A DNA stretch of 55,866 bases from an uncultured Gammaproteobacteria bacterium (GTDB lineage: Bacteria > Patescibacteriota > Patescibacteriia > Patescibacteriales > UBA12075), in contig CAYWNT010000008.1 of NCBI GenBank assembly GCA_964459725.1, positions 3,694 through 59,559 on the forward strand, written 5' to 3'. The notes below the pieces were generated by a model. That model saw only the letters and a list, made by a program, of their open reading frames with translations, had not been told where the DNA came from and did not search any database. The stretch's first letter is position 1, and each line of letters starts with the position of its first letter. This document shows, piece after piece, positions 16,601-55,866 of this stretch. A program made the position numbers and the translations under genes.

Positions 16601-17750
16601 ACTTGTAGATAAAAAGTTCCCGGTAATAAATAGAAAGGAGAAAATAACTATTCCGGAAAAACTAGTAAGAGAAGTAGTGCCAGAAGGGGATATTCACACA
16701 GAGGAAGAGAGGAGACTTTTCTACGTTGCTGTAACTCGTGCGAAAAGGAAGCTATATTTAACAACAGCCAAGGATTATGGCGGAGCAAGAGAAAAGAAAC
16801 CTTCCAAGTTTTTGGAGGAAATGGGTGAAGTCGAAAGTCGCCCGCCTGCCGGACGGACAGGAAAGTTGAAAGTCGCCCGCCTGCCGGACGGACAGGAAAG
16901 TCAGTTAAGTAGTAACGAGTTACTTGATGATGTAAATGCTAAGACAATCAAGAGGGAAACTGAGACTCTGTACGCATTACCAAAAATGTATTCATTTTCC
17001 CAACTTGAGGCTTATTCAAATTGTCCTTTGCAGTATAAGTTCAATTTTATTTTAAAAATACCGGTTGAGGAAAAGGTGAGCTTTATCTTTGGCAGGGTAA
17101 TGCATAATGTCCTTAAGGATTTCTTTGAGAGGATTATTGGTGGCAATAGTATTCAGCCTGAGTTGTTTAGCAGTACCGAAGAAAAAGAAGTTAAAAGGCC
17201 GACTGAAAAAGAATTGTTACAAATTTACAAAGAGAGATGGAATGATAATGGTTATCATTCTAAGCTCGAGAGAGAGAAATATAAAAAGAAAGGCGAGGAT
17301 ATTCTGCGTGATTTGTATAAAAGACTAGAGGAAGACGGTTGGCCGAAAGTCATGTTTGTTGAGAAAGGGTTTAATGTAAGAATTGGCCAATACACCCTCA
17401 GGGGTTCAATTGATAGAATCGACAGACTACCTGACGAGACTGTAGAGATAGTAGACTATAAAACAGGCAACCCAAAAGAGAAACTAGATGCCAAGAGCAA
17501 GCGCCAGTTAATACTCTATAAGATTGCTTGCGAGCAAGTGCTAGGCCTGAAGGTTTCTAAGCTTTCATATTATTATTTGGAAAACAATAACAAGATCTCT
17601 TTCGAAGCAAAAGACAAAGAAATAGAAAAACAAGAGGAACAAATTATAGCGCAAATTGAAGAGATAAAAAAATGCAACTTTACAGCAAAGCCTGGATTTT
17701 TATGTGCTTATTGTGACTTCAAAGATATTTGTGAGTTTAAAAAACTCTAA
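13683..17750 (+). CDS. UvrD/PcrA-family SF1A helicase fused to a PD-(D/E)XK nuclease with Fe-S cysteines; contains an intein
   Basis: AGAGTGKT, VDEFQD, GDDDQ/SIYAFRG, TVHAAKGLEF, EERRLFYVAVTRA; C-terminal GSIDRID...DYKTG and C.....CxxCxxxxxC. Confidence 0.95.
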   Translation: MTEFVKQLNNEQKKAATHKDGPLLVVAGAGTGKTTVLIERLNYLIKNKLAKPDEILITTFTEKAAGEMEERADKILPYGYTDLWINTFHGFCERILRDHALDIGLSADFKLLTQTEQWMMIRRHLDEFELDYYRPLGNPTKFIHELIKHFSRLKDENISSEEYLKYAEDLEQDTDSMLDGSKETKEQEVDRINEIANAFHKYNQLLLENSYLDFGDLIVYTIKLFKERPNVLKGYQEQFKYIMVDEFQDTNWSQYELIKILAEPKNNLMVVGDDDQCLPGSTKILLPKNKEKRIDKIKVGEEVVTAVGKGHLCFSKVKHVNKTIKKAKLITFKTEKGRTITTTDNHKMFCFVNEDKYAKEVKKYFYVYLMHKEGLGWRMGITNNLIIRLRLERKADKVVAIKACKNEIEARYQENLLSLKYGIPTNVFAERDGIMTKKELVEKLYKELDVESGVIRLAQDLGIDLTVHQVSSNGVNRSGKVRIKINLEMCYRNYRSKYRKVYLKTPNISHLLSVETTHKPTILKLKKMGFDLKNARLGKRLRIQSEDLSYLGKIAKKIQKEIGGIVENRFNVGTANIQHKRSLVVPASNILEGMYIPVVTSKGVIYDQIISRKEKKKKTTVYDLEIEKTHNFIANGIAVHNSIYAFRGSSMHNIMQFEDDFPKTKKVVLTKNYRSGEEILDASYNFIKHNDPNRLEVKLGIDKKLTSPLKKKGDIVNLNFHTEAEETSSVVKEIVNIKASEKESKWSDFAILVRANSTAVKFVNELDRAGIPNQFVSLRGLYQKPIVVDILAYLKLLDNYHESSALYRVLNMEVFKVTHSDIVTINKFARRKVWSTFEALRNIDAIKEISETSRENIKKLLIFIGKHSEKVKKSLPSKVYVSFVRDTGLLKDLDHDKDREIFDYLNQFYQKIKTFESDGDDLRLSDFMKMFEMELESGETGSLRSMADDPDVVKVMTVHAAKGLEFDYVFMPGLVDKKFPVINRKEKITIPEKLVREVVPEGDIHTEEERRLFYVAVTRAKRKLYLTTAKDYGGAREKKPSKFLEEMGEVESRPPAGRTGKLKVARLPDGQESQLSSNELLDDVNAKTIKRETETLYALPKMYSFSQLEAYSNCPLQYKFNFILKIPVEEKVSFIFGRVMHNVLKDFFERIIGGNSIQPELFSSTEEKEVKRPTEKELLQIYKERWNDNGYHSKLEREKYKKKGEDILRDLYKRLEEDGWPKVMFVEKGFNVRIGQYTLRGSIDRIDRLPDETVEIVDYKTGNPKEKLDAKSKRQLILYKIACEQVLGLKVSKLSYYYLENNNKISFEAKDKEIEKQEEQIIAQIEEIKKCNFTAKPGFLCAYCDFKDICEFKKL
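14511..15605 (+). mobile_element. 365-aa intein in helicase motif III with a GIY-YIG-like central domain
   Basis: Splits GDDDQ|SIYAFRG. Starts CLPGSTKI, has block B TTTDNH and block F VYDLEIEKTHNFIANG, and ends HN before Ser. Confidence 0.95.
16841..16896 (+). repeat. Two copies of the 21-nt element CCCGCCTGCCGGACGGACAGG inside the helicase gene
   Basis: Exact copies at 16841-16861 and 16876-16896, embedded in GAAAGTY heptamers. Confidence 0.9.
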
Positions 17751-20074: not shown

Positions 20075-20105
20075 ACACATAACAGTTGGCACATAACACA
20101 TAACA
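20075..20105 (+). repeat. ACATAAC heptamer array upstream of the four-helix-bundle gene
   Basis: ACACATAACA gttgg CACATAACACATAACA; reverse complement of the array at 20472. Confidence 0.75.
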
Positions 20106-20471: not shown

Positions 20472-20506
20472 TGTTATGTGTTACGTGTTATATGTTACGA
20501 GTTATG
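20472..20506 (+). repeat. TGTTAYR heptamer array x5, the last unit supplying the pheT ATG
   Basis: TGTTATG TGTTACG TGTTATA TGTTACG AGTTATG. Confidence 0.85.
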
Positions 20507-22933
20507 AATTTATCACTAAATTGGTTAAAAGAATACGTTGATTTACCAAAATCATACACTCCCGAGAAGATCGGAGATGCTTTGACTATGCACACTGTTG
20601 AAGTGGAGGAAACAATAGAGCAGGCGAAAAAGTTTGATAGAGTGGTGGTGGGTAAAATTTTGGAAATAAGCAAACATCCAAATGCGGATAGATTGCAAAT
20701 CGCCAAGGTGGATATCAAGAGCGAGGAACTAAACATAGTTTGCGGAGCTCCAAATATTGAGGTGGGGCAATTAGCTCCGGTCGCTATGGTTGGCGCGGTT
20801 TTAGCAGGTGGGTTTGAGATCAAAGAAGCAAGCGTTAGAGGTGTAGAGTCAAGGGGAATGCTATGCGCTGAAGATGAGCTTGGACTTGGAGAGGATCATT
20901 CTGGAATTATGATTTTGGAAAAAGGTGCTAAATTAGGCCAGAACTTTTCAGATTATTTAGGTCTGGATGATATTGTATTTGAAGTGGATAATAAGTCACT
21001 CTCTAACAGGCCAGATCTTTGGGGGCATATCGGTATAGCTAGAGAATTGTCTGCCATATTTAATATTTCTTTTAAAAATTTAGACCTGAAATCTTCAAAG
21101 CTTGAGACTGATAATTCCCAGAAACTATCTATAAAAATAGAAGATTATGATTTATGTCCTAGATATATGGGTGCGGTCATTGAAGGTATAAAAATTGAAC
21201 CATCTCCGAAATGGCTTCAAGACAGACTCATTGCAGTTGGGGTAAGACCAATTAACAATATAGTTGATATAACAAACTACGTAATGTTAGAAACAGGTCA
21301 GCCTATGCACGCTTTTGACACTGAGAAAATATCAGAAGACGGGAAAGATGCCAAAATCATAGTTCGTAAGGCAGAAAAAGAAGAAGTGGTAAAAACACTA
21401 GACGGAGAAGAGCGAAAATTAAACGAAGAAACGTTGGTAATTGCTGATAATAAAAAAGCTATAGCCGTAGCAGGTGTCATGGGAGGAGGGAATAGCGAAG
21501 TGCACGATGACACTACTTCGATAGTTCTGGAATCTGCGAATTTTGATTATGTTTCTATCAGAAAAACGTCTACTAAGTTGGGACTCAGAACAGAAGCTTC
21601 TATGAGATATGAAAAAGGATTAGATCCGAACTTGTGCGAGGTTGGATTTGCTAGAGCAGCTGAATTAATAAAAAAGGTTTGCCCAGAAGCAAGGATTGTT
21701 AGTGAAATAAAAGATGAAAATAAATACACATTAAACACCGGTCCTGTAACTATCAACTATGAATGGGCCAAGGGAATTATCGGTGAGGAGATAGCGGAAA
21801 AAGAAATGGTTAAAATTCTTGAGAGTTTGGGCTTCGGTGTTGAGAGCGGGGAAGAAGAAATGAAAATAACAATTCCAACATGGCGAGCAACGCGCGATAT
21901 TGCATTGAAGGAGGACATAGTTGAGGAAATTATAAGAATATACGGCTTCAACAAGATTCCTTCCAAGATGCCAGAGGCCCCACTTGGTGTGCCTTTTAGT
22001 GATAAAAGCAGGGTAATCATTAGAAAAATAAAGAATATTTTATCTACTTCTTGTGCCCTAACAGAGACTTATAACTACTCTTTTATTGGTGAGGAGTATT
22101 TGGAAAAACTGGGAATGGATTATTCATCCTATGTTAGATTGGTAAATCCAATCGCTAATAACTTAAATCTACTAAGACAGAATCTTGCGCCAGGTCTCAT
22201 TGCTAATATCAAAACCAATCAGGCCAGGTATGATGACATAACACTTTTTGAAATCGGAAATGTCTATCATAATATTGATGGTGAAATTGTAAAAGGCGAT
22301 GATAGTAGTCAAAAGCTTCCTTATCAAGAAAAAAGATTGGGGATTATTATTGCTGGAAAAGGGAAGAATGATACTTTCGAGCTAGCTAAAGGAGTGTGGG
22401 AAAACTTGCTAACTAGTTTTAATTTGGAATCAACATATAGCCTAACTGATGTTTTACCGCCCTGGGCAGACAAGAATATATCAGCACAAATTAGCATTTC
22501 CGGAATTGATGTTGGATTTATCGGAGCGTTATCTTCAGGCGCTGCTAAAAAAACAGGAACAAAAAAACAAGCTACAATTATAGAGGTCAGTTTGCCGGAG
22601 CTAATCAGAGTTATTCAGGAAAAAAGTTCAATCATGCACGAACAAGAAGACAAATACCCACCGCTTATTAGAGATTTGGCTTTTGTGGTGAATGAGCGCG
22701 TTTTGTACAATGACATCAAAAATGAAATCAATGAGTTTAATGAATATATAAAAAATGTTGAGCTTTTTGATATTTATCGCGGAGAAAATATTGGAAAAGA
22801 GAACAAGAGCTTAGCTTTTCGAGTTTTCTATCAGGCCGATCGCACTCTTACATCAAAAGAAGTAGATGTGTGGCAAAAAGAGTTAATCAAAAAACTAGAA
22901 GAAAAATTCGAAGCAAAAATAAGAGACTTCTAA
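20504..22933 (+). CDS. pheT: Phenylalanine--tRNA ligase beta subunit (start corrected to ATG 20504)
   Basis: MNLSLNWLKEY, HPNADRL, NRPDL, GQPMHAFD, C-terminal RDLAFVV...KSLAFR. The extra 11 aa in the ORF track are translated repeat. Confidence 0.97.
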   Translation: MNLSLNWLKEYVDLPKSYTPEKIGDALTMHTVEVEETIEQAKKFDRVVVGKILEISKHPNADRLQIAKVDIKSEELNIVCGAPNIEVGQLAPVAMVGAVLAGGFEIKEASVRGVESRGMLCAEDELGLGEDHSGIMILEKGAKLGQNFSDYLGLDDIVFEVDNKSLSNRPDLWGHIGIARELSAIFNISFKNLDLKSSKLETDNSQKLSIKIEDYDLCPRYMGAVIEGIKIEPSPKWLQDRLIAVGVRPINNIVDITNYVMLETGQPMHAFDTEKISEDGKDAKIIVRKAEKEEVVKTLDGEERKLNEETLVIADNKKAIAVAGVMGGGNSEVHDDTTSIVLESANFDYVSIRKTSTKLGLRTEASMRYEKGLDPNLCEVGFARAAELIKKVCPEARIVSEIKDENKYTLNTGPVTINYEWAKGIIGEEIAEKEMVKILESLGFGVESGEEEMKITIPTWRATRDIALKEDIVEEIIRIYGFNKIPSKMPEAPLGVPFSDKSRVIIRKIKNILSTSCALTETYNYSFIGEEYLEKLGMDYSSYVRLVNPIANNLNLLRQNLAPGLIANIKTNQARYDDITLFEIGNVYHNIDGEIVKGDDSSQKLPYQEKRLGIIIAGKGKNDTFELAKGVWENLLTSFNLESTYSLTDVLPPWADKNISAQISISGIDVGFIGALSSGAAKKTGTKKQATIIEVSLPELIRVIQEKSSIMHEQEDKYPPLIRDLAFVVNERVLYNDIKNEINEFNEYIKNVELFDIYRGENIGKENKSLAFRVFYQADRTLTSKEVDVWQKELIKKLEEKFEAKIRDF

Positions 22934-23938: not shown

Positions 23939-26203
23939 TTATTTTTTATATTTACATTCCTTATTAGAGCATTTTGATCCTTCTTTTAGACCAACCATCA
24001 ATGACTCGCATTCCGGGCATTTTTCTCCTGTTGGTTTACTCCAGTAAGCGTTTTTACAATCTGGGTAATTATCACAAGCATAGAATGCTCCACGTTTACT
24101 TCTCTTCTGAACTATTTCACCTTTGCCGCATTTAGGGCATTTAATTCCAGTGCTATTTTTATTTTCTTCAAGTCCTTTGATGTTTTTGCATTTAGGATAG
24201 CCAGAGCAGGCCAAGAATGGTCCAAATCTGCCGTTTTTTATAATCATTTCGCTGTTACATTTATCACATACTTCGCCCTTGTATTTTTCTTGTAGGGCCT
24301 TGAGTTGATCATCTCCTTCTTTGTCCAGAGTTCCGTCAGTTTTTAAATTTTTAACATTTTTGCATTCAGGGTAATTGGAGCATGACATGAATTTCCCGAA
24401 ACGTCCTGTTTTAATAATCATTGGAGATTCGCATTTGTCACAAACCTCGTCTGTTTTTTCTTCTGGCATAATATCTTTTTTATTTACTTCTTTATATTTT
24501 ACTTCTAGGTTGGAGTGGAAAGGCTTATAGAAATTATCTATTGTTTCGTGCCATTTATGTTTTCCCTCGGCTATTTCATCTAGGTTTGTTTCCATTTGAG
24601 CTGTAAACTCATAATCAACGATATTCTTGAAATGATTGGTAAGGAGGTCGATAACTGTGAATGCAATCTCTGTTGGCTTTAATCTTTTGTTTTCTTCTCT
24701 TTGTACGTAATTCCTAGCCTCAATTGTTGAAATAGTTGGAGCGTAAGTTGATGGTCTACCAATTCCATATTGCTCCAGAGCTTTCACTAGAGTCGCGTCA
24801 GAATATCTAGCAGGCGGCTGAGTGAAGTGTTGTTCTGGATTTAGTTTTTCTAGGTCGAGCTCATCTCCGGCAGTAACCGTAGGCAGGATTGTTTCCTTGC
24901 TTTTTTCTGCATAAACCTTTAGATATCCAGGGAATTTTATTATCTGACCGGTTGTTCTAAATTGATATGGAGCCTGTCCTGAGCCTGTCGAATGGGTACT
25001 AGAGGCGTCTATGTCAATTGAAGTATTGTCCATGACAGCATCAGGCATTTGAGTTGCTATACTCCTTTCCCAGATTAACTTGTATAGCTTATACTGATCG
25101 GGTTTTAGCTTGTCTTTGAGTGAGTCAGGAGTTCTCTCGGCTTCAGTTGGGCGAATTGCTTCGTGTGCCTCTTGGGCGCCTTTACTTTTTGTTTTAAAAA
25201 CTCTTGGCTTGTCTAGGCTGTACTCCTTGCCAATTTCTTTGTCTAAATAGTTCTTTGCATCTTTAATAAATTTGGAAGACAGGTTCATAGAGTCGGTTCT
25301 CATGTAGGTAATCAAACCTCCACTGTCACCGCCCAGATCTAGACCTTCATATAATTGCTGAGCTACCATCATTGTTCGCTTAGCTGAAAATCCTAGCATT
25401 CTGTTGGCTGTAATTTGCAGCGTAGAAGTAGTAAATGGAGTAGGAGCTTTTTTCTTGCTTTCTTTTTTGGTTATATCAGAAACTTGGTACTTAACACCAT
25501 CTAGTTCTTTTAAAATCTTATCCATTTCCTCCTTGCTCTTAATCCCAAGCTTTGGAACACTCTTCCCATCTATTTTATTCAACTTTCCAATTAAATTTGC
25601 CTTTTTATCTTTTGTGTTTAGATTAGCCTCCAGGCTCCAATATTCTTCTGGCTTAAAGGCTTGTATTTCTCTTTCTCTTTCAATAATTAATCGAACGGCA
25701 ACACTCTGCACTCTACCTGCGGATAAACCATAAGTTATTTTTTTCCAAAGAAAAGGAGAAAGTTCAAAACCAACCAGTCTGTCTAGTACACGACGAGCTT
25801 GCTGAGCATCAACCAGGTCCATGTCAATTTTCTTTGGGTCTTCAAGGGCCTTAAGTATTGCACCCTTGGTAATTTCATGAAATACAATTCTTTGTGTTTT
25901 GCTAGCGTCTAATTTGAGCGCCTCGGCCAGATGCCAGGCGATAGCCTCTCCTTCACGATCTTCATCGGGCGCCAGGATTATTTCATCTGCCTTTTTGGCC
26001 AAGTCCCTTAACTTAGTAACTTGTTTTTTGGCTTTAGCTGGGATTACATATTTAGGTTTATAGTCATTCTCTAGATCTATTCCCATTTGTTTTTTTTCTA
26101 AATCACGGATATGACCAAAAGAAGACTCCACCTTGAAATCTTTACCTAAGAATTTTTTAATTGTTCTTGCCTTAGTAGGCGACTCAACGATAACTAATTT
26201 CAT
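23939..26203 (-). CDS. topA: DNA topoisomerase I
   Basis: LVIVESPTKA, DEDREGEAI, SAGRVQS, LITYMRTDS, C-terminal zinc ribbons. Confidence 0.98.
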   Translation of the reverse strand: MKLVIVESPTKARTIKKFLGKDFKVESSFGHIRDLEKKQMGIDLENDYKPKYVIPAKAKKQVTKLRDLAKKADEIILAPDEDREGEAIAWHLAEALKLDASKTQRIVFHEITKGAILKALEDPKKIDMDLVDAQQARRVLDRLVGFELSPFLWKKITYGLSAGRVQSVAVRLIIEREREIQAFKPEEYWSLEANLNTKDKKANLIGKLNKIDGKSVPKLGIKSKEEMDKILKELDGVKYQVSDITKKESKKKAPTPFTTSTLQITANRMLGFSAKRTMMVAQQLYEGLDLGGDSGGLITYMRTDSMNLSSKFIKDAKNYLDKEIGKEYSLDKPRVFKTKSKGAQEAHEAIRPTEAERTPDSLKDKLKPDQYKLYKLIWERSIATQMPDAVMDNTSIDIDASSTHSTGSGQAPYQFRTTGQIIKFPGYLKVYAEKSKETILPTVTAGDELDLEKLNPEQHFTQPPARYSDATLVKALEQYGIGRPSTYAPTISTIEARNYVQREENKRLKPTEIAFTVIDLLTNHFKNIVDYEFTAQMETNLDEIAEGKHKWHETIDNFYKPFHSNLEVKYKEVNKKDIMPEEKTDEVCDKCESPMIIKTGRFGKFMSCSNYPECKNVKNLKTDGTLDKEGDDQLKALQEKYKGEVCDKCNSEMIIKNGRFGPFLACSGYPKCKNIKGLEENKNSTGIKCPKCGKGEIVQKRSKRGAFYACDNYPDCKNAYWSKPTGEKCPECESLMVGLKEGSKCSNKECKYKK
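24973..24996 (-). repeat. 24-nt in-frame element CCCATTCGACAGGCTCAGGACAGG in topA
   Basis: Gives the insert in DASSTHSTGSGQAPYQF; removal restores DASSTPYQF. Confidence 0.8.
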
Positions 26204-27738: not shown

Positions 27739-27757
27739 CTTGCCCGCCCCTGGAGGG
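27739..27757 (-). repeat. 19-nt intergenic copy of the CCCnCC...GGGCARG element
   Basis: Minus strand CCCTCCAGGGGCGGGCAAG; compare CCCTCCAGGAAGGCGGGCAGG at 55458. Confidence 0.75.
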
Positions 27758-46292: not shown

Positions 46293-46295
46293 AAA

Positions 46296-46331
46296 TGTTA
46301 CGTAGCATGTTACGTAACATGCTACGTAACA
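46296..46331. repeat. Perfect 36-bp palindrome built from three 12-bp units
   Basis: TGTTACGTAGCA TGTTACGTAACA TGCTACGTAACA. Confidence 0.9.
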
Positions 46332-46862: not shown

Positions 46863-47648
46863 ATGAAAATTACAAGCAAGGACAATAAAACTATAAAACT
46901 TTTTAAAAGTTTACAAAACAAAAAACACAGAGAAAAGGAGTCAATGTTTGTGGTGGAAAATTTAAAAACAATTTATGACGCTTTCGAGAGCGATATTTAT
47001 CCGGAGGAGATATTAATAACTGAAGAGATCCTAAAAAAAGATGGCGAAAAAATTAAAAATCTAACTAATTCAGTAAATATTATTGATTCAAAATTAAATA
47101 AACAAATTTCAAGCTTGGATACAGCTTCAGGCGCTATGGCAGTTTATAAAAAAAAGGAAAAAGAAATTAATAAGAAAGGTCCGATTGTTTATTTGAACAA
47201 TATCAATGACCCAGGCAATCTAGGTACAATTCTGCGTTCGGCTCTGGCTTTTGGTATTAAAAATATAGTTCTTGATGACAAAACAGTAGATCTCTATAAT
47301 CCTAAGGTTATTAACGCGGCCAAGGATTCGATTTTCAAGTTAAATATAAAAACGGGTGAGAGTATAGCGTTTCTTAAGGCGCTTGCCCTGTCGAATGACG
47401 GGGTTAAAGAAAAAACCCCAATCATCTCGACCTCACTTGAGGGAAGGAGCATTAAAGAGGGTAATGTGTTTAGCAAAAATAATTTTTGTTTAGTTCTGGG
47501 AAGCGAGGCCCATGGAGTAGACCAGGAAATCCTGGAAATGTCTGACTACAAAATAAAAATCCCAATCAGCAAAGAAGAGGAGTCATTAAACGTAGGAGTG
47601 GCTGCTGGAATAATATTTTTTTATATAGCATCATCTAAGGCAGTGTAG
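46863..47648 (+). CDS. TrmH/SpoU family RNA methyltransferase
   Basis: DPGNLGTILRSA, LGSEAHGV, ESLNVGVAAGI. Confidence 0.95.
   Translation: MKITSKDNKTIKLFKSLQNKKHREKESMFVVENLKTIYDAFESDIYPEEILITEEILKKDGEKIKNLTNSVNIIDSKLNKQISSLDTASGAMAVYKKKEKEINKKGPIVYLNNINDPGNLGTILRSALAFGIKNIVLDDKTVDLYNPKVINAAKDSIFKLNIKTGESIAFLKALALSNDGVKEKTPIISTSLEGRSIKEGNVFSKNNFCLVLGSEAHGVDQEILEMSDYKIKIPISKEEESLNVGVAAGIIFFYIASSKAV
47382..47402 (-). repeat. 21-nt in-frame element in the TrmH gene
   Basis: Minus strand CCCGTCATTCGACAGGGCAAG; adds LALSNDG, and removal gives FLKAVKEK. Confidence 0.65.
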
Positions 47649-52322: not shown

Positions 52323-52696
52323 AAGAGCGAAAGTGTAAATTTATTTTTTCTGTTTATAAAAATAAGCAAAAATTTAATAAATATTATTAAAAAAATTATT
52401 TTACTAATGTTAGCTAAATAATTTTTTATTAAAAACATAAAACTTAAGTTTTTTGTTATACTTTTTTATTTGTCTTAAACTAGTTAAAAATGGTATAATA
52501 AAGAGGAAATCAGCTTATTAAAAAAGAGAAATAAATTGAATAAAAAATAAAAATAAAATTAATATTTTAAACTAATATTAAATAATAAAAATCAAAAAAA
52601 TAAAAGAAAAATAAAATTTTTCAACTAAAAAAATAAAATACAAAAAACAAAAATAAAATTCGAAATTCTATAAAATAAAATTTGAATTTTATACCC

Positions 52697-55600
52697 ATGC
52701 TTGTCGGGAAATTTTGTAAAAAATTTTTAAATATTTTTAAATATTCACGATGGAGTCAGTTGAGGCGTTTGATGCTTAACTGGCGTTTTGTTTTTTTTGG
52801 AATATTAATTTTTGTTATTTTTGGAGTTTATCCTTATAGTTTTTTAAAAAAATCAATCAAGGCAATAAAGGGAGTTGATTCTGCAGTGGTGAGCCTCTAT
52901 GCAGACAAGGCAGCGTTAGTCGGTGAAGTTGAGGACGGATACAAAGTGGGCTGGTGGAATGTTGGTAACTCAATCGGAGAACCTGAGCTTGGACCAAATG
53001 ATGATTTACTATTTTTCAATGATGCTAATTCTGTTTTTTATTCAGGCGGAAATTACAGCATGGTGCTGGGTGATTTTTCTCCAGCTGAAGAATATGTGTC
53101 AATAGCAAATGAAGAGGATGAGGAAACTCAAGAAAGCTATGATATTGTCGAGGTGGTTGATGAAAATGAATTTGATAATGAGTCTGCTACTTCTTCCTTG
53201 GCTACTTCTACTACTGCTACTTCAACCAGTATAAGCACTGCTACTACTACAGCCTCAACATCCCCGGAAATTCAGGTTGAAGTGGAGGACGATGAGATTG
53301 TTGATGAAAGTATTGGAAATAGTGAAGATCCTTCGGCCACTTCGACTGGCTCTCCTTCGGCAAGCTCAGAGCAGACCCACCATGACGGCGGGCAGGTAGG
53401 GCAAGGAGGTGATAGGAGTGAGAATTTGTCTGAAACAGAACAGCCAATAGGCGAAGAAGAACAAATAATCCAAGAAGACATAGGGGGAGTTGAGGAATTG
53501 GCAGAGGAACCAGATGTTGAGTTCTTGGTTGAGGATTTACCCGAAGAGGGGAATGAGGATGCGGTGGTTGAAATTATTGAAATAGAAGAAAATGATGTTC
53601 AAATTCCTGTGGAAGAGGAGGTTGAAGATATTTCATTTTTGAAAAAATCAATTAATTTTGTAAGAAACATTGGTAGTGTTTTAACTAATTCCCGTGCTCA
53701 AGCTGCTTCAGAAAAAGTGGATTTAGAAAAATTTGGCGAACTAAATGGGGCTAGAATTGTTTTTTCTTTAGCCAGTGTTTATATAAATAGATCAAATAGT
53801 AGCTCTGATGAGGGGGGTGAAAATTCTTTTCCAGCCCCGCTAGACGTTGATACAACTGGTAGCGATGAATTCTTGGTCGAAGAGGGGGGTGAGACAGAGA
53901 CAATTTCGGAAGAACCTGTGCTGTTTGAGGCGGTTGAAGAAGAAGTATTGCCAGAGCCAGAAGTGGTCGAAGAGGAGGAAGTCGTATCAGAGCCAATAGA
54001 GAGTGAGACAGTGGAGCAGGAACCTGTCGAAGCTGAAGAAACAGACCTGATAAGCAGGATAAATAATTTTTTATTTCAATCAGTAAGCGCCCAGTCTGAT
54101 CAGAGAAATACCAAAATAATTATTTGGTATTCTACTCAAAAAGATCAGGGCACAACAAGTGAAGAAGCTCTCTGGCATGAGCTGGGCAGAATTAGTAGTG
54201 GAAATATTTCCAATGCTCTAAACGGCGGTTATTTTGAGTATGATGCGCCGTTTTTGGATAGTTGGGAAAAAATTGAAAATTTACGTATAAAGCTGGAAGG
54301 TGTAACCGGCGACGATGATAATTATATTTTTTACCTTGATTCAGTCTGGGTAGATGCAGAGTATGATCCCGCTGAAGAAGCGCCGGAAAAAGAAGAGGAT
54401 CGCAGGAAGAGATGGGAGGAGGCCTTGGAGTTGTTGTCAGAAAAACAAGATTTTAAATTAGATGAAAAAGGAGAACTTAGATTTAAATACAAAAAAAACA
54501 AAGAGAGGCTGCTCGAGGCTATTGGTGAATTTTTTGGACTTTCAAACTATTGGAGTGATGTAAATCTAAAGGCCGAACTTCGGGGTCGCAAGGGTGAAAA
54601 GCTTGACCTACCTCTTGATATTGTCTTTGAAGAAGATGGTGGATTTACTTTGAACTTGCCAGACTTGCCTCGTGATTTCCAGCCAGGTGAATATAGTATT
54701 GAATTCACAATTGAAGATAATTCGGGGGAGAATCCTGAAGTGATTACTCTAACTCAGGACTTTACTTGGGGAGTTATCGCTATGAATTTTAACAAAAGTA
54801 TTTATTCTATGGACGAAAAGGGCTATATCCAGATGGCTGTACTTGATGATTATGGGCATACAATATGTGATGCTGAGTTGAATCTGGAAATTATCGGACC
54901 GGGAGGAGCTATCGAGAGTTTAAGCACAGAGTCAGGTGATATTGAGCTAAGTGAATATTGCGGTCCGAAATCAATTACTAACGTACCGGATTATTTCATC
55001 TATTATGATTTTAAAAAGGAGGGGGATTATCAGTTTGAGTTAACCGCTGATACTAAAAATGGAACTAGAGTGATCCATGACTTTGTTGAGGTGAGAAAAG
55101 GTGTGGAGATTTTTGATATTGAGCGCACCGGAGCGACCAGGATTAACCCAAAGGCTGATTATGTTATGACTATTAGATTGACCGCGAATGAGGATTATCG
55201 TGGTGACATAACAGAGTATGTGCCAAGTGAATTTAAAATTACCCACACTTCGCTGATGCTTCTAGGGGCAGGCTCTTTAGAACGTGATCCTTTTGGTAGT
55301 AACTACAAATATTATGAGGATAATCAAGAAGGTGAGAAAATTCTTGTTTGGCAAGATGTTGATTTGAGAGAGGGGGATGTTCTGGAAATGAAATATACTT
55401 ATGACGCTCCTGATATTTCTCCAGAGTTTTATTTGCTAGGACCTCTTCGACTGAGCTCCCTCCAGGAAGGCGGGCAGGCAGGGCAGGCCCTTGATCAAAA
55501 CGGTATATTTGAGGAAAGTCGTTCTTGGCAGATAGCGTCAGACGCGGTTAGTAAAAGAGCGAAAACTGTTATGTTTTATGCCGGACAATACAATGGCGGA

Positions 55601-55866
55601 GCAACGGCTGGCAATTCTACTAACGTACAATACACTCTATCTGATTTTAATTTTCGTTTAGCAGAATCCGGGGTGGATATTAAAAATGCCTATATTCTTT
55701 TTGAAGCACAGATTGAAGCTTATACAAACGGGTCTGGGAATTACACGGGTTATGACCTTGGGTTTGATGCTTGTTCAGGCGCGTCTTGTCCGCCTTCGGC
55801 ATTTATAGGAGACAATGTGCAGCAGAATGACACAAGCGTACTTGCCTATAATGAGGGCGAGTCAAC
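52697..55866 (+). CDS. Giant exported acidic surface protein, 3'-truncated (>1056 aa); missing from the ORF track because it has no stop in the window
   Basis: The frame from ATG 52697 (alternative 52772) matches the reading frame at the window end. N-terminal TM, Glu-rich linkers, ATSS/ATST tracts, QDFTWGVIA.N.NKS and FEE.R.WQIASDA segments. Confidence 0.85.
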   Translation, partial: MLVGKFCKKFLNIFKYSRWSQLRRLMLNWRFVFFGILIFVIFGVYPYSFLKKSIKAIKGVDSAVVSLYADKAALVGEVEDGYKVGWWNVGNSIGEPELGPNDDLLFFNDANSVFYSGGNYSMVLGDFSPAEEYVSIANEEDEETQESYDIVEVVDENEFDNESATSSLATSTTATSTSISTATTTASTSPEIQVEVEDDEIVDESIGNSEDPSATSTGSPSASSEQTHHDGGQVGQGGDRSENLSETEQPIGEEEQIIQEDIGGVEELAEEPDVEFLVEDLPEEGNEDAVVEIIEIEENDVQIPVEEEVEDISFLKKSINFVRNIGSVLTNSRAQAASEKVDLEKFGELNGARIVFSLASVYINRSNSSSDEGGENSFPAPLDVDTTGSDEFLVEEGGETETISEEPVLFEAVEEEVLPEPEVVEEEEVVSEPIESETVEQEPVEAEETDLISRINNFLFQSVSAQSDQRNTKIIIWYSTQKDQGTTSEEALWHELGRISSGNISNALNGGYFEYDAPFLDSWEKIENLRIKLEGVTGDDDNYIFYLDSVWVDAEYDPAEEAPEKEEDRRKRWEEALELLSEKQDFKLDEKGELRFKYKKNKERLLEAIGEFFGLSNYWSDVNLKAELRGRKGEKLDLPLDIVFEEDGGFTLNLPDLPRDFQPGEYSIEFTIEDNSGENPEVITLTQDFTWGVIAMNFNKSIYSMDEKGYIQMAVLDDYGHTICDAELNLEIIGPGGAIESLSTESGDIELSEYCGPKSITNVPDYFIYYDFKKEGDYQFELTADTKNGTRVIHDFVEVRKGVEIFDIERTGATRINPKADYVMTIRLTANEDYRGDITEYVPSEFKITHTSLMLLGAGSLERDPFGSNYKYYEDNQEGEKILVWQDVDLREGDVLEMKYTYDAPDISPEFYLLGPLRLSSLQEGGQAGQALDQNGIFEESRSWQIASDAVSKRAKTVMFYAGQYNGGATAGNSTNVQYTLSDFNFRLAESGVDIKNAYILFEAQIEAYTNGSGNYTGYDLGFDACSGASCPPSAFIGDNVQQNDTSVLAYNEGES
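53337..53405 (+). repeat. Triple nested micro-element cluster (24+24+21 nt) in coding sequence
   Basis: CCACTTCGACTGGCT[CTCCTTCGGCAAGCTCAGAGCAGA][CCCACCATGACGGCGGGCAGG]TAGGGCAAG. Confidence 0.75.
55246..55272 (+). repeat. Degenerate 27-nt micro-element in coding sequence
   Basis: CACTTCGCTGATGCTTCTAGGGGCAGG. Confidence 0.5.
55443..55487 (+). repeat. Nested micro-elements (21 nt inside 24 nt) in coding sequence
   Basis: CTCTTCGACTGAGCT[CCCTCCAGGAAGGCGGGCAGG]CAGGGCAGG. Confidence 0.8.

Follow-up and report, generated by a model that had tools for sequence, protein, structure and literature searches.

Nested GC-rich modules of 21 and 24 nucleotides at a shared junction in coding DNA of a Patescibacteria genome and its relatives

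We analyzed a stretch of 55,866 nucleotides (the window; GenBank assembly GCA_964459725.1, contig CAYWNT010000008.1, positions 3,694 to 59,559) from a metagenome-assembled genome (MAG) that GTDB places in the Patescibacteriota, in which two GC-rich micro-elements, a 21-nt module (A) and a 24-nt module (B), lie inside one another within a single open reading frame (ORF). In coding DNA, A lies in the middle of B, where the two half-repeats of B meet, at the junction GCT^CAGG. Comparisons of close genomes show that A comes and goes as a block of exactly 21 nt, and B itself is a true insertion, placed in frame in loops and linkers. As to how the nesting arises, we tentatively favor homology-templated copying between family members with no dedicated transposase, to which we assign a probability of about 0.4.

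Nested modules in the window and across the genome

The consensus of A is CCCNCC-N5-GGCGGGCARG, and that of B is TTCGRCNNGCT+CAGSRCARG. Within B, a GRCARG core is repeated directly (TTC-GRCARG-CT / CAG-GRCARG), and the ends of B share only CCTT/AAGG. In what follows, L is the left half of B, ending in GCT, R is its 9-nt right half, and l9 is a partial 9-nt left prefix. Two sites in the window carry nested units, and both lie in frame within the same 3'-open ORF:

52682..55864, plus strand: host gene, an ORF open at its 3' end with 1061 aa encoded in the window; the protein has a hydrophobic segment at the N-terminus and low-complexity linkers of acidic character
53330..53338, plus strand: partial left half CCTTCGGCC ahead of the host L
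53337..53351, plus strand: site 1, left half L of the host B, CCACTTCGACTGGCT, ending in GCT
53352..53375, plus strand: site 1, inner whole 24-nt B, CTCCTTCGGCAAGCTCAGAGCAGA = CTCC+TTCGGCAAGCT+CAGAGCAGA, right after the host GCT
53376..53396, plus strand: site 1, A, 21 nt, CCCACCATGACGGCGGGCAGG = CCCACC-ATGAC-GGCGGG-CAGG
53397..53405, plus strand: site 1, right half R of the host B, TAGGGCAAG
55443..55457, plus strand: site 2, left half L, CTCTTCGACTGAGCT, with one extra base (TTCGACTGAGCT)
55458..55478, plus strand: site 2, A, 21 nt, CCCTCCAGGAAGGCGGGCAGG = CCCTCC-AGGAA-GGCGGG-CAGG
55479..55487, plus strand: site 2, right half R, CAGGGCAGG

The host protein is a large membrane-anchored protein; no Pfam family matched it, and the homologues, large proteins as well, come from MAGs with Patescibacteria names (Parcubacteria, Kerfeldbacteria, Falkowbacteria, and Patescibacteria group). 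The nesting described in the initial annotation was borne out both by direct reading and by pattern search, because a 30-nt A+R pattern matched twice in the window and not once in any of 100 dinucleotide-preserving shuffles. In Logan contigs of four public marine or seawater runs from two studies, site 1 was found in 4/4 and site 2 in 2/4, with identical sequence over the parts covered and no indel alleles, although the assembly may derive from two of these runs, and contigs lose rare variants and are therefore silent on minor alleles. Rfam and tRNA scans of the window gave no match.

The annotation had also stated that both host units are split 15+9. The position relative to GCT is indeed the same at the two sites, but the two 15-nt left parts are out of register, since site 2 has TTCGACTGAGCT, one base above the usual TTCGACNNGCT, and the left edge of the site-2 host is arbitrary because its first bases encode a G-P-L that is kept in homologues that have no insert. 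The simplest description of site 1 is a canonical L-A-R with one entire 24-nt B between L and A, at GCT^. Its 9+13-nt prefix recurs at C1:59715, C4:82880, C9:12440, and C3:51400. At site 2, R and the 3' part of A form a 9-nt periodic run, and the only repeat that Tandem Repeats Finder reported at the window sites was this 9-nt run (2.5 copies, 55468-55488).

The genome that holds the window (G000; 1.695 Mb, 128 contigs, 36% GC) was compared with 61 relatives for B, 25 family genomes for A, and 316 genomes of the order for the L+A combination; the relatives' genomes measure 0.6–1.8 Mb. Taken with the names of the host-protein homologues, these sizes suggest that the organism is probably a member of the Patescibacteria/CPR. 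Contigs of G000 are given as C1, C4, and so on (C8 carries sites 1 and 2), and numbered labels such as L048, L088, and L168 denote loci from metagenomes or family genomes. Approximately 68 kb of the G000 assembly (29 contigs of 0.45–0.62 GC, including C29, C34, C40, C58, and C101) lies far above 36% GC; these contigs probably come from other organisms in the bin, and they were left out of the unit counts. The composites of G000 have the following unit orders:

C1:59715-59825: l9 L A L L A R
C4:82880-82950: l9 L R CAAGCT A R
C4:105520-105570: L A R
C8 site 1: l9 L L R A R
C8 site 2: L A R
C9:12440-12530: l9 L R CAAGCT A A R

Every coding A of G000 lies within a B-type context, in one orientation and one frame, although the patterns used to find these units described A only and left the flanks unconditioned. 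GCT immediately precedes A in 6/8 coding units in the G000 composites and, with the same A-only patterns, in 4/6 coding units elsewhere in genomes and metagenome contigs, that is, in 10/14 overall, and the orientation is single in all 14. A YAGGRCARG 9-mer directly follows A in 6/8 of the G000 units. The defined junction that the initial annotation had proposed from two sites is therefore non-random among the composites collected here. The architecture l9-L-R-CAAGCT-A-R occurs at two different genes (C4:82880 and C9:12440), and both the A1+A2 doublet (C9:12479) and single A units stand directly after GCT. The proposed nesting of B into B comes from one instance, and the C1:59715-59825 array, with three left halves and one clear right half, has no strict-nesting parse.

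Outside G000, L/A/R junctions were found at the C-terminus of NusB (G011), in G011:C130, in the tail of ribosomal protein L29 (G022), and in a loop of RmlD (metagenome locus L088), where the composite splits the Pfam match. The left side is degraded in G020:C138 (GTT/A/CAGGCCAGG) and in an FtsK linker of G020 (CCT/A/CAGGATGAC). By the L+A pattern, which misses variants such as TTCAAC, a composite is present in 2/316 genomes of the order. When the L+A junction pattern was run against genome contigs, its two matches fell in unrelated GC-rich or other genomes and were taken as chance. In metagenomes, the strict A pattern matched at 67 loci, of which five are related (L048, L088, L064, L087, and L092; GC up to 0.44); the remaining loci, in coding DNA on contigs of 0.45–0.78 GC, look like chance matches.

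B occurs in 14 intact copies in G000. Eleven of them lie in long ORFs on the sense strand and in one frame (P-S-x-G-S-G-Q), and of the other three, one is read in a second frame, one stands at a C-terminus, and one follows a tRNA; at least 12/14 intact copies are in long ORFs on the sense strand. Copies near transfer-messenger RNA and tRNA fall outside the RNA genes. The B pattern is present in 19/61 relatives, and a reversed-pattern control gave 0. The in-frame host genes of the units include topA, RmlD, NusB, L29, an FtsK linker, and a radical-SAM enzyme. An uninterrupted copy lies in the DNA topoisomerase I gene of the window (topA, 23939..26203, minus strand, by Pfam):

24971..24994, minus strand: uninterrupted B in topA, a 24-nt in-frame insertion encoding 8 aa, HSTGSGQA

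These 24 nt are missing at the same site in 21/23 other family topA sequences, and no target duplication is seen. Similarly, only 2/67 homologues of the host protein contain the 8-residue PSxGSGQx between IGD and F, and the minimal 12-residue loop is without it. Together, the topA and loop comparisons show that B is an inserted unit. In the topA gene of G011, another insertion of 8 residues, different from B, lies a few codons upstream of the B site.

The loop that holds site 2, between LLGP and WQIASD, ranges from 12 to 46 aa over the 67 homologues and has the minimal length of 12 in 32/67, in agreement with the earlier suggestion that such units can grow linkers and loops. In relatives, this loop contains a degenerate uninterrupted B (G015), heptamer expansions, small perfect palindromes (G010 and G009), or carrier heptamers without A (G011), which indicates that elements pile up where the protein tolerates them and where older elements lie.

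Strict A copies in G000 number 20 (12 non-coding, 7 coding, and 1 unclear). The non-coding ones are mostly found in head-to-tail arrays of 18–23-nt units between CATAAC(N) heptamers, for example at C12:26380-26520, C26:2511-2552, and C6:8072-8113. The window contains one A-like unit of this kind:

27739..27757, minus strand: non-coding A-like unit, CCCTCCAGGGGCGGGCAAG, then CATAAT

A was found in 9/25 family genomes (27 matches, against 0 in the control), with invariant stems and varying loops, and one non-coding A is identical at 21/21 positions in G000, G011, and G022. Outside B, the bases 5' of A vary (AACA, AATT, TTTT, GAAT, CAGG, and others). The loops of A units inside B are purine-rich (AGGAA, AAGAC, AGGAC, and AAGAA; in genus g12, AAAAA, AGAAA, and AAAGA), non-coding A units of the same genomes have loops such as AGTTC and TGAGC, and in G000 no loop is common to the 8 coding and the listed non-coding units. 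Judging from these loops, the B-embedded A units form a subfamily distinct from the non-coding A of the same genomes. G000 is also rich in GC-rich 10-mers with the GRCARG core (GGCGGGCAGG, 14 copies; GGCAGACAGG, 16 copies). In other family genomes (G003 and G017; L151 and L157 in G017:C5, and L149, L159, L161, L165, and L167), A is centered in symmetric carriers. These consist either of CAAAATT heptamers in direct orientation, at two coding loci that have 48 nt in common, or of inverted repeats such as ATTCTGAAT...ATTCAGAAT, and one such carrier lies inside the G017 orthologue of the window's host protein.

Insertion alleles between close genomes

Two genera, g12 (G011, G020, and G022) and g10 (G009 and G019), were used for orthologous comparison, and the intermediate alleles that the initial annotation had predicted were found in them. 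In the tail of L29, G022 has TTCAACAAGCT + A CCCTCCAAAAAGGCGGGCAGG + CAGAACAGG (AAGCT[21 nt]CAGAAC), whereas G020 has TTCAACAAGTTCAGAGCAGG (junction AAGTTCAGAGC), that is, B without A. The gap is exactly 21 nt at GCT^CAG, and the flanks are identical in 345/371 aligned columns. A second pair was found in a membrane-protein gene, where G009 has TTTTCAATTTT + 21-nt A + CAATTTTTTATC and G019 has TTTTCAATTTTCAGCTTACAGTC, again with a gap of exactly 21 nt. In this pair, 6/10 bases after A also differ, and the G009 version recreates a CAATTTT heptamer, which flanks A in the metagenome loci L064, L087, and L092. In both pairs, the flanking direct repeat amounts to 1 nt, and there is no target duplication.

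Other comparisons revealed larger or less clear differences. In a radical-SAM gene (UPF0004, MiaB-like), G020 has 36 nt, consisting of A2 and a third small palindrome, that G011 lacks, and a GAT direct repeat borders the block; the triple unit of this gene is found again in L048 and, in G028, in a gene unrelated to this one. In NusB, a whole L-A-R lies within the last codons of the G011 gene, the position is empty in G022 and G000, and G020 has an intact B and other units just past the stop codon. A surface-protein loop of G020 and G022 fits an A-in-B indel, but it is counted here as ambiguous because a single 12-nt gap with substitutions explains the global alignment equally well; the G022 loop contains an extra R-like 9-mer. 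In this loop (G020:C138, L185; G022:C98, L186), three of four CpG in the B-type left half are changed to CpA in G020, and the adjacent A keeps its CpG, suggesting that the ages of the modules or the constraints on them are unequal. No further allele pair was obtained from the G011:C130 host protein, whose G022 orthologue ends at a contig edge, from the FtsK linker, for which the orthologue search found only 40%-identical paralogues, or from a non-coding A in G022:C95, for which no orthologous region was found.

Two further observations concern replaced or inserted GC-rich sequence of other types. At an orthologous intergenic site with 80% identical flanks (G011:C105:8480-8580, L215; G022:C45, L216), both genomes have heptamer repeats on either side of a GC-rich center, and both the heptamer (GTTGAAA vs ATTCTTA) and the center differ, as if the cassette had been replaced. 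In G000, a truncated second copy of tRNA-His (C11, ~22000-22080; L168:500-581, minus strand) contains an exact 20-nt perfect palindrome, CCTGCCTGTCGGCAGACAGG, which is placed in the D-arm between GGTTA and GAACAC; neither a target duplication nor homology in the flanks is seen. The intact tRNA-His (L168:323-397), 180 nt downstream, shows the empty site, and ARAGORN and Rfam call only this intact copy. The 20-nt palindrome belongs to a related, sister family. The window contains more GC-rich micro-elements and short repeats (16828-16902; 20075-20105 and 20472-20506; 46295-46331; ~47382-47403), among which are a 35-nt unit present 2.1 times (GTCGCCCGCCTGCCGGACGGACAGG between GACTTT-like repeats), heptamer runs (ACACATA and TGTTACG), a 12-mer run, and a CCCCGTCATTCGACAGGGCAAG hairpin whose family also occurs in the rRNA spacer (C4:16443).

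Possible origins of the nested units

Under the templated-copying reading, template switching or ectopic gene conversion during replication or repair would copy GC-rich family members into each other, with the B halves (11–13 and 9 nt) or the carrier heptamer serving as short homology, and resident copies would draw further copies. The nesting point would then be inherited from the donor composite, so that the same fixed junction could arise without a cutting enzyme if an existing composite served as template by way of its B halves. The 45-nt L-A-R composite is itself copied as a unit to new places; in-frame 9- and 15-nt slippage of sub-modules would add local variation, and selection would keep only in-frame, hydrophilic, sense-oriented copies in permissive loops. 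We favor this reading because of the replaced flank in G009, the purine-rich-loop subfamily, the recurring architectures, and the shared GRCARG core, which together with the 9-nt periodicity is a source of microhomology. The whole composites found at virgin sites, in NusB of G011 (with G020, G022, and G000 lacking one) and in RmlD of L088, also count for copying.

Several results weigh against templated copying. With the strict A pattern, which gives only one or two matches in each of G022 and G009, no donor composite was detected in these genomes, so a donor would have to be divergent, unassembled, or exogenous. The flanks of the L29 pair keep shared derived changes (TTCAAC and CAGA-) 4–8 nt from the junction, and any conversion tract there would therefore have covered almost exactly A, as an enzyme would give. 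Microhomology at the L/A junction amounts to only 1 nt (C), and the first insertions at virgin sites such as topA and RmlD show no obvious homology. The cross-genus DNA identity of A and B is more easily obtained through protein recognition or function than through passive copying, the 20-nt palindrome of the tRNA-His copy was inserted exactly, with neither duplication nor flanking homology, and site 1 requires a whole B at the same GCT^ point. The direction of the indels, gain or loss, is not set in any pair.

The missing donors, the flank-free L29 indel, the 1-nt microhomology, the cross-genus identity, and the tRNA-His palindrome make a dedicated enzyme a serious rival, which we consider somewhat less likely than templated copying. 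Here, A and sometimes B would be tiny non-autonomous cassettes that a site- or structure-specific enzyme inserts or excises after the GCT of B, possibly acting on single-stranded DNA like the Y1 transposases of the IS200/IS605 or RAYT (REP-associated tyrosine transposase) type and leaving no target duplication. The exact 21-nt presence or absence in two congeneric pairs, with almost no co-converted flank in the L29 pair, is what such an enzyme would produce, and the invariant junction and single orientation of 14/14 coding A units fit it as well. So do the palindrome in the tRNA-His copy with its empty site 180 nt away, the whole B at the same point of site 1, the conservation of A and B DNA across genera, and the A1+A2 doublet at C9:12479, which, together with single A units that also follow GCT, may represent separate entries.

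The survey of candidate genes, however, identified no such enzyme. The only intact IS200-like Y1 transposase gene of G000 (Y1_Tnp, PF01797; C2:98753-99091) is flanked by its own hairpins (AAACCACC...GGTGGTTT), which are unrelated to A or B, and neither module flanks it. No A-type sequence was present at any of the 10 Y1 loci inspected in family genomes, and Y1-like genes occur in 8/9 family genomes with A and 10/16 without it, that is, with no clear co-occurrence; the RAYT/IS200 link was dropped on these grounds. This survey of G000 and the family genomes found no element-linked transposase. Reverse-transcriptase genes are present on low-GC contigs (C5:57817-58428 and C9:40572-41078), with no positional link to A or B. 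As single-stranded DNA, the window A units fold at only -2.1 and -1.7 kcal/mol, no better than 200 shuffles (z 0.34 and 0.31), and whole composites fold worse than shuffles. With one mismatch in its stem, the window-type A is therefore a hairpin in name only; the folding covered this type, as distinct from the CCCGCC-type A1 units, which have perfect 6-bp stems. The inconstant 5' context of A outside B, the replaced flank of the G009/G019 event, and the separation of the B-embedded A from the non-coding subfamily also speak against the enzyme. The enzyme-directed insertion proposed in the initial annotation is thus not supported, given also that composites are copied whole, and it is likewise less likely than not that A and B, with their 21 and 24 nt, represent the smallest known class of mobile cassettes in bacteria, integrated into each other at GCT^CAGG by a Patescibacteria enzyme with no target duplication.

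Purely local slippage or unequal crossing-over of 9-, 15-, 21-, and 24-nt sub-repeats, with the units being the repeat phases that selection tolerates, is improbable. It would account for the 9-nt periodicity at 55468-55488, the tandem L-L at site 1 and at C1:59764/59779, the tandem 9-nt prefixes (CCTTCGRCC ACTTCGACW) at five loci, the extra R-like 9-mer in the G022 loop, the surface loop of G020 and G022 that can be aligned with one 12-nt gap, and the heptamer expansions in the same loop of other homologues. However, slippage cannot place the same 20–24-nt sequences in unrelated genes (topA, RmlD, NusB, L29, and the FtsK linker) or in non-coding DNA, and it does not explain exact A indels with just 1 nt of flanking direct repeat. 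Moreover, no duplication of a contiguous segment can produce the order L L R A R of site 1. As a sole process, slippage is largely refuted by the dispersed identical copies.

Even less probable is a scenario in which the element was a full-length L-A-R from the start and the fixed junction reflects this one ancestral structure; B would then have arisen from it by internal deletion, and the intermediate alleles would record losses of A. Composites do move as units, and the 36-nt block (A2 and the third hairpin) missing from the radical-SAM gene of G011, with the GAT repeat at its borders, counts for this scenario as well. Nevertheless, B is present in 19/61 relatives, whereas the composite is found in 2/316 order genomes by the L+A pattern, A exists independently in non-coding arrays and other carriers, and repeated exact 21-nt losses with 1 nt of microhomology are unlikely. 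An assembly or binning artefact, or chance resemblance, for which a 128-contig MAG with some GC-rich contaminant contigs might speak, is refuted by the same sequence in contigs of four runs from two studies, by the absence of matches in the shuffles and reversed-pattern controls, and by the units in many independent genomes and metagenomes.

Relation to known systems and implications

A and B resemble repetitive extragenic palindromes and bacterial interspersed mosaic elements (REP/BIME), Rickettsia palindromic elements (RPE), and mitochondrial GC clusters, yet they miss defining features of each. REP/BIME are 20–40-nt GC-rich imperfect palindromes with a conserved tetranucleotide by the stem (GTAG or CGTC); they are extragenic and are associated with RAYT Y1/HUH transposases. 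Like them, the units described here are short, GC-rich, and dispersed, form head-to-tail mosaics with short linkers (here in the non-coding arrays), and cause no target duplication. Unlike the extragenic REPs, 7–8 of ~20 A and 12–13 of 14 B are translated in frame. In addition, B is built as a direct repeat rather than a palindrome, the tag reads CARG and stands on the 3' side, neither module flanks a Y1 gene, and the stem of A is marginal.

RPE are palindromic elements of ~100–150 bp that are inserted in frame in surface loops of proteins in an alphaproteobacterial host with a reduced AT-rich genome, and to our knowledge the enzyme that mobilizes them has not been identified. The units share with RPE the in-frame insertion, which includes housekeeping genes (topA, RmlD, NusB, L29, the FtsK linker, and the radical-SAM enzyme). 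They differ in being modular and five times shorter (21, 24, and 45 nt), and neither the nesting at a fixed nucleotide nor the A/B modularity is a feature of RPE. The host group is also different, as the homologues of the host protein bear Patescibacteria or candidate phyla radiation names.

IS200/IS605 elements have two subterminal hairpins and a TnpA; they insert 3' of a short sequence in a specific orientation, excise precisely, and leave no duplication. The formal behavior of A at GCT^ is similar, but A has one weak 17-nt hairpin and no consistent 5' tetranucleotide outside B. Template switching, microhomology-mediated repair, and ectopic gene conversion produce short copied inserts and replaced flanks at homologous hot spots, with no dedicated enzyme. 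The replaced flank in G009/G019 matches this pattern, but templated insertions are normally idiosyncratic, whereas the 21- and 24-nt units come back with the same sequence from one genus to another; for this, an added drive would be needed, such as GC-rich "sticky" homology, selection, or horizontal supply.

Yeast mitochondrial GC clusters are short GC-rich units in an AT-rich genome (PMC4478555). The likeness is that GC-rich units merge and shuffle in AT-rich DNA, with stems conserved over loops, as in the 27 family A matches. The clusters are organellar 30–60-nt true palindromes with an AG target duplication, unlike the present units, which are bacterial, order-wide, and free of duplication and include one direct repeat.

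The units also lack the features of miniature inverted-repeat transposable elements and classical transposons, as there are no terminal inverted repeats and no duplication at topA, L29, the tRNA-His copy, or G009/G019. Nor do they form a simple tandem-repeat array, because identical units are dispersed over many contigs and genomes. A literature search by keyword, peptide word, and DNA word, which did not cover supplementary files, found no account of A/B units.

If these 21–24-nt modules are actively copied, then proteins of the candidate phyla radiation would vary in length, in frame, through a source that has so far not been described, with a reach that extends from essential enzymes and proteins (topoisomerase I, RmlD, NusB, and ribosomal protein L29) to giant surface proteins. 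The units also give rise to hypervariable loops, such as the one at site 2. If the enzyme reading were true, self-targeting would build in-frame linkers and loops in surface and even housekeeping proteins and would amount to a dedicated generator of such variation. For annotation, the three open sense frames of the units yield recurrent pseudo-motifs in predicted proteins. Finally, the exact 21-nt presence/absence pairs make the question of enzymatic versus templated-repair spread, which also concerns REP, RPE, and GC clusters, testable in close genomes.

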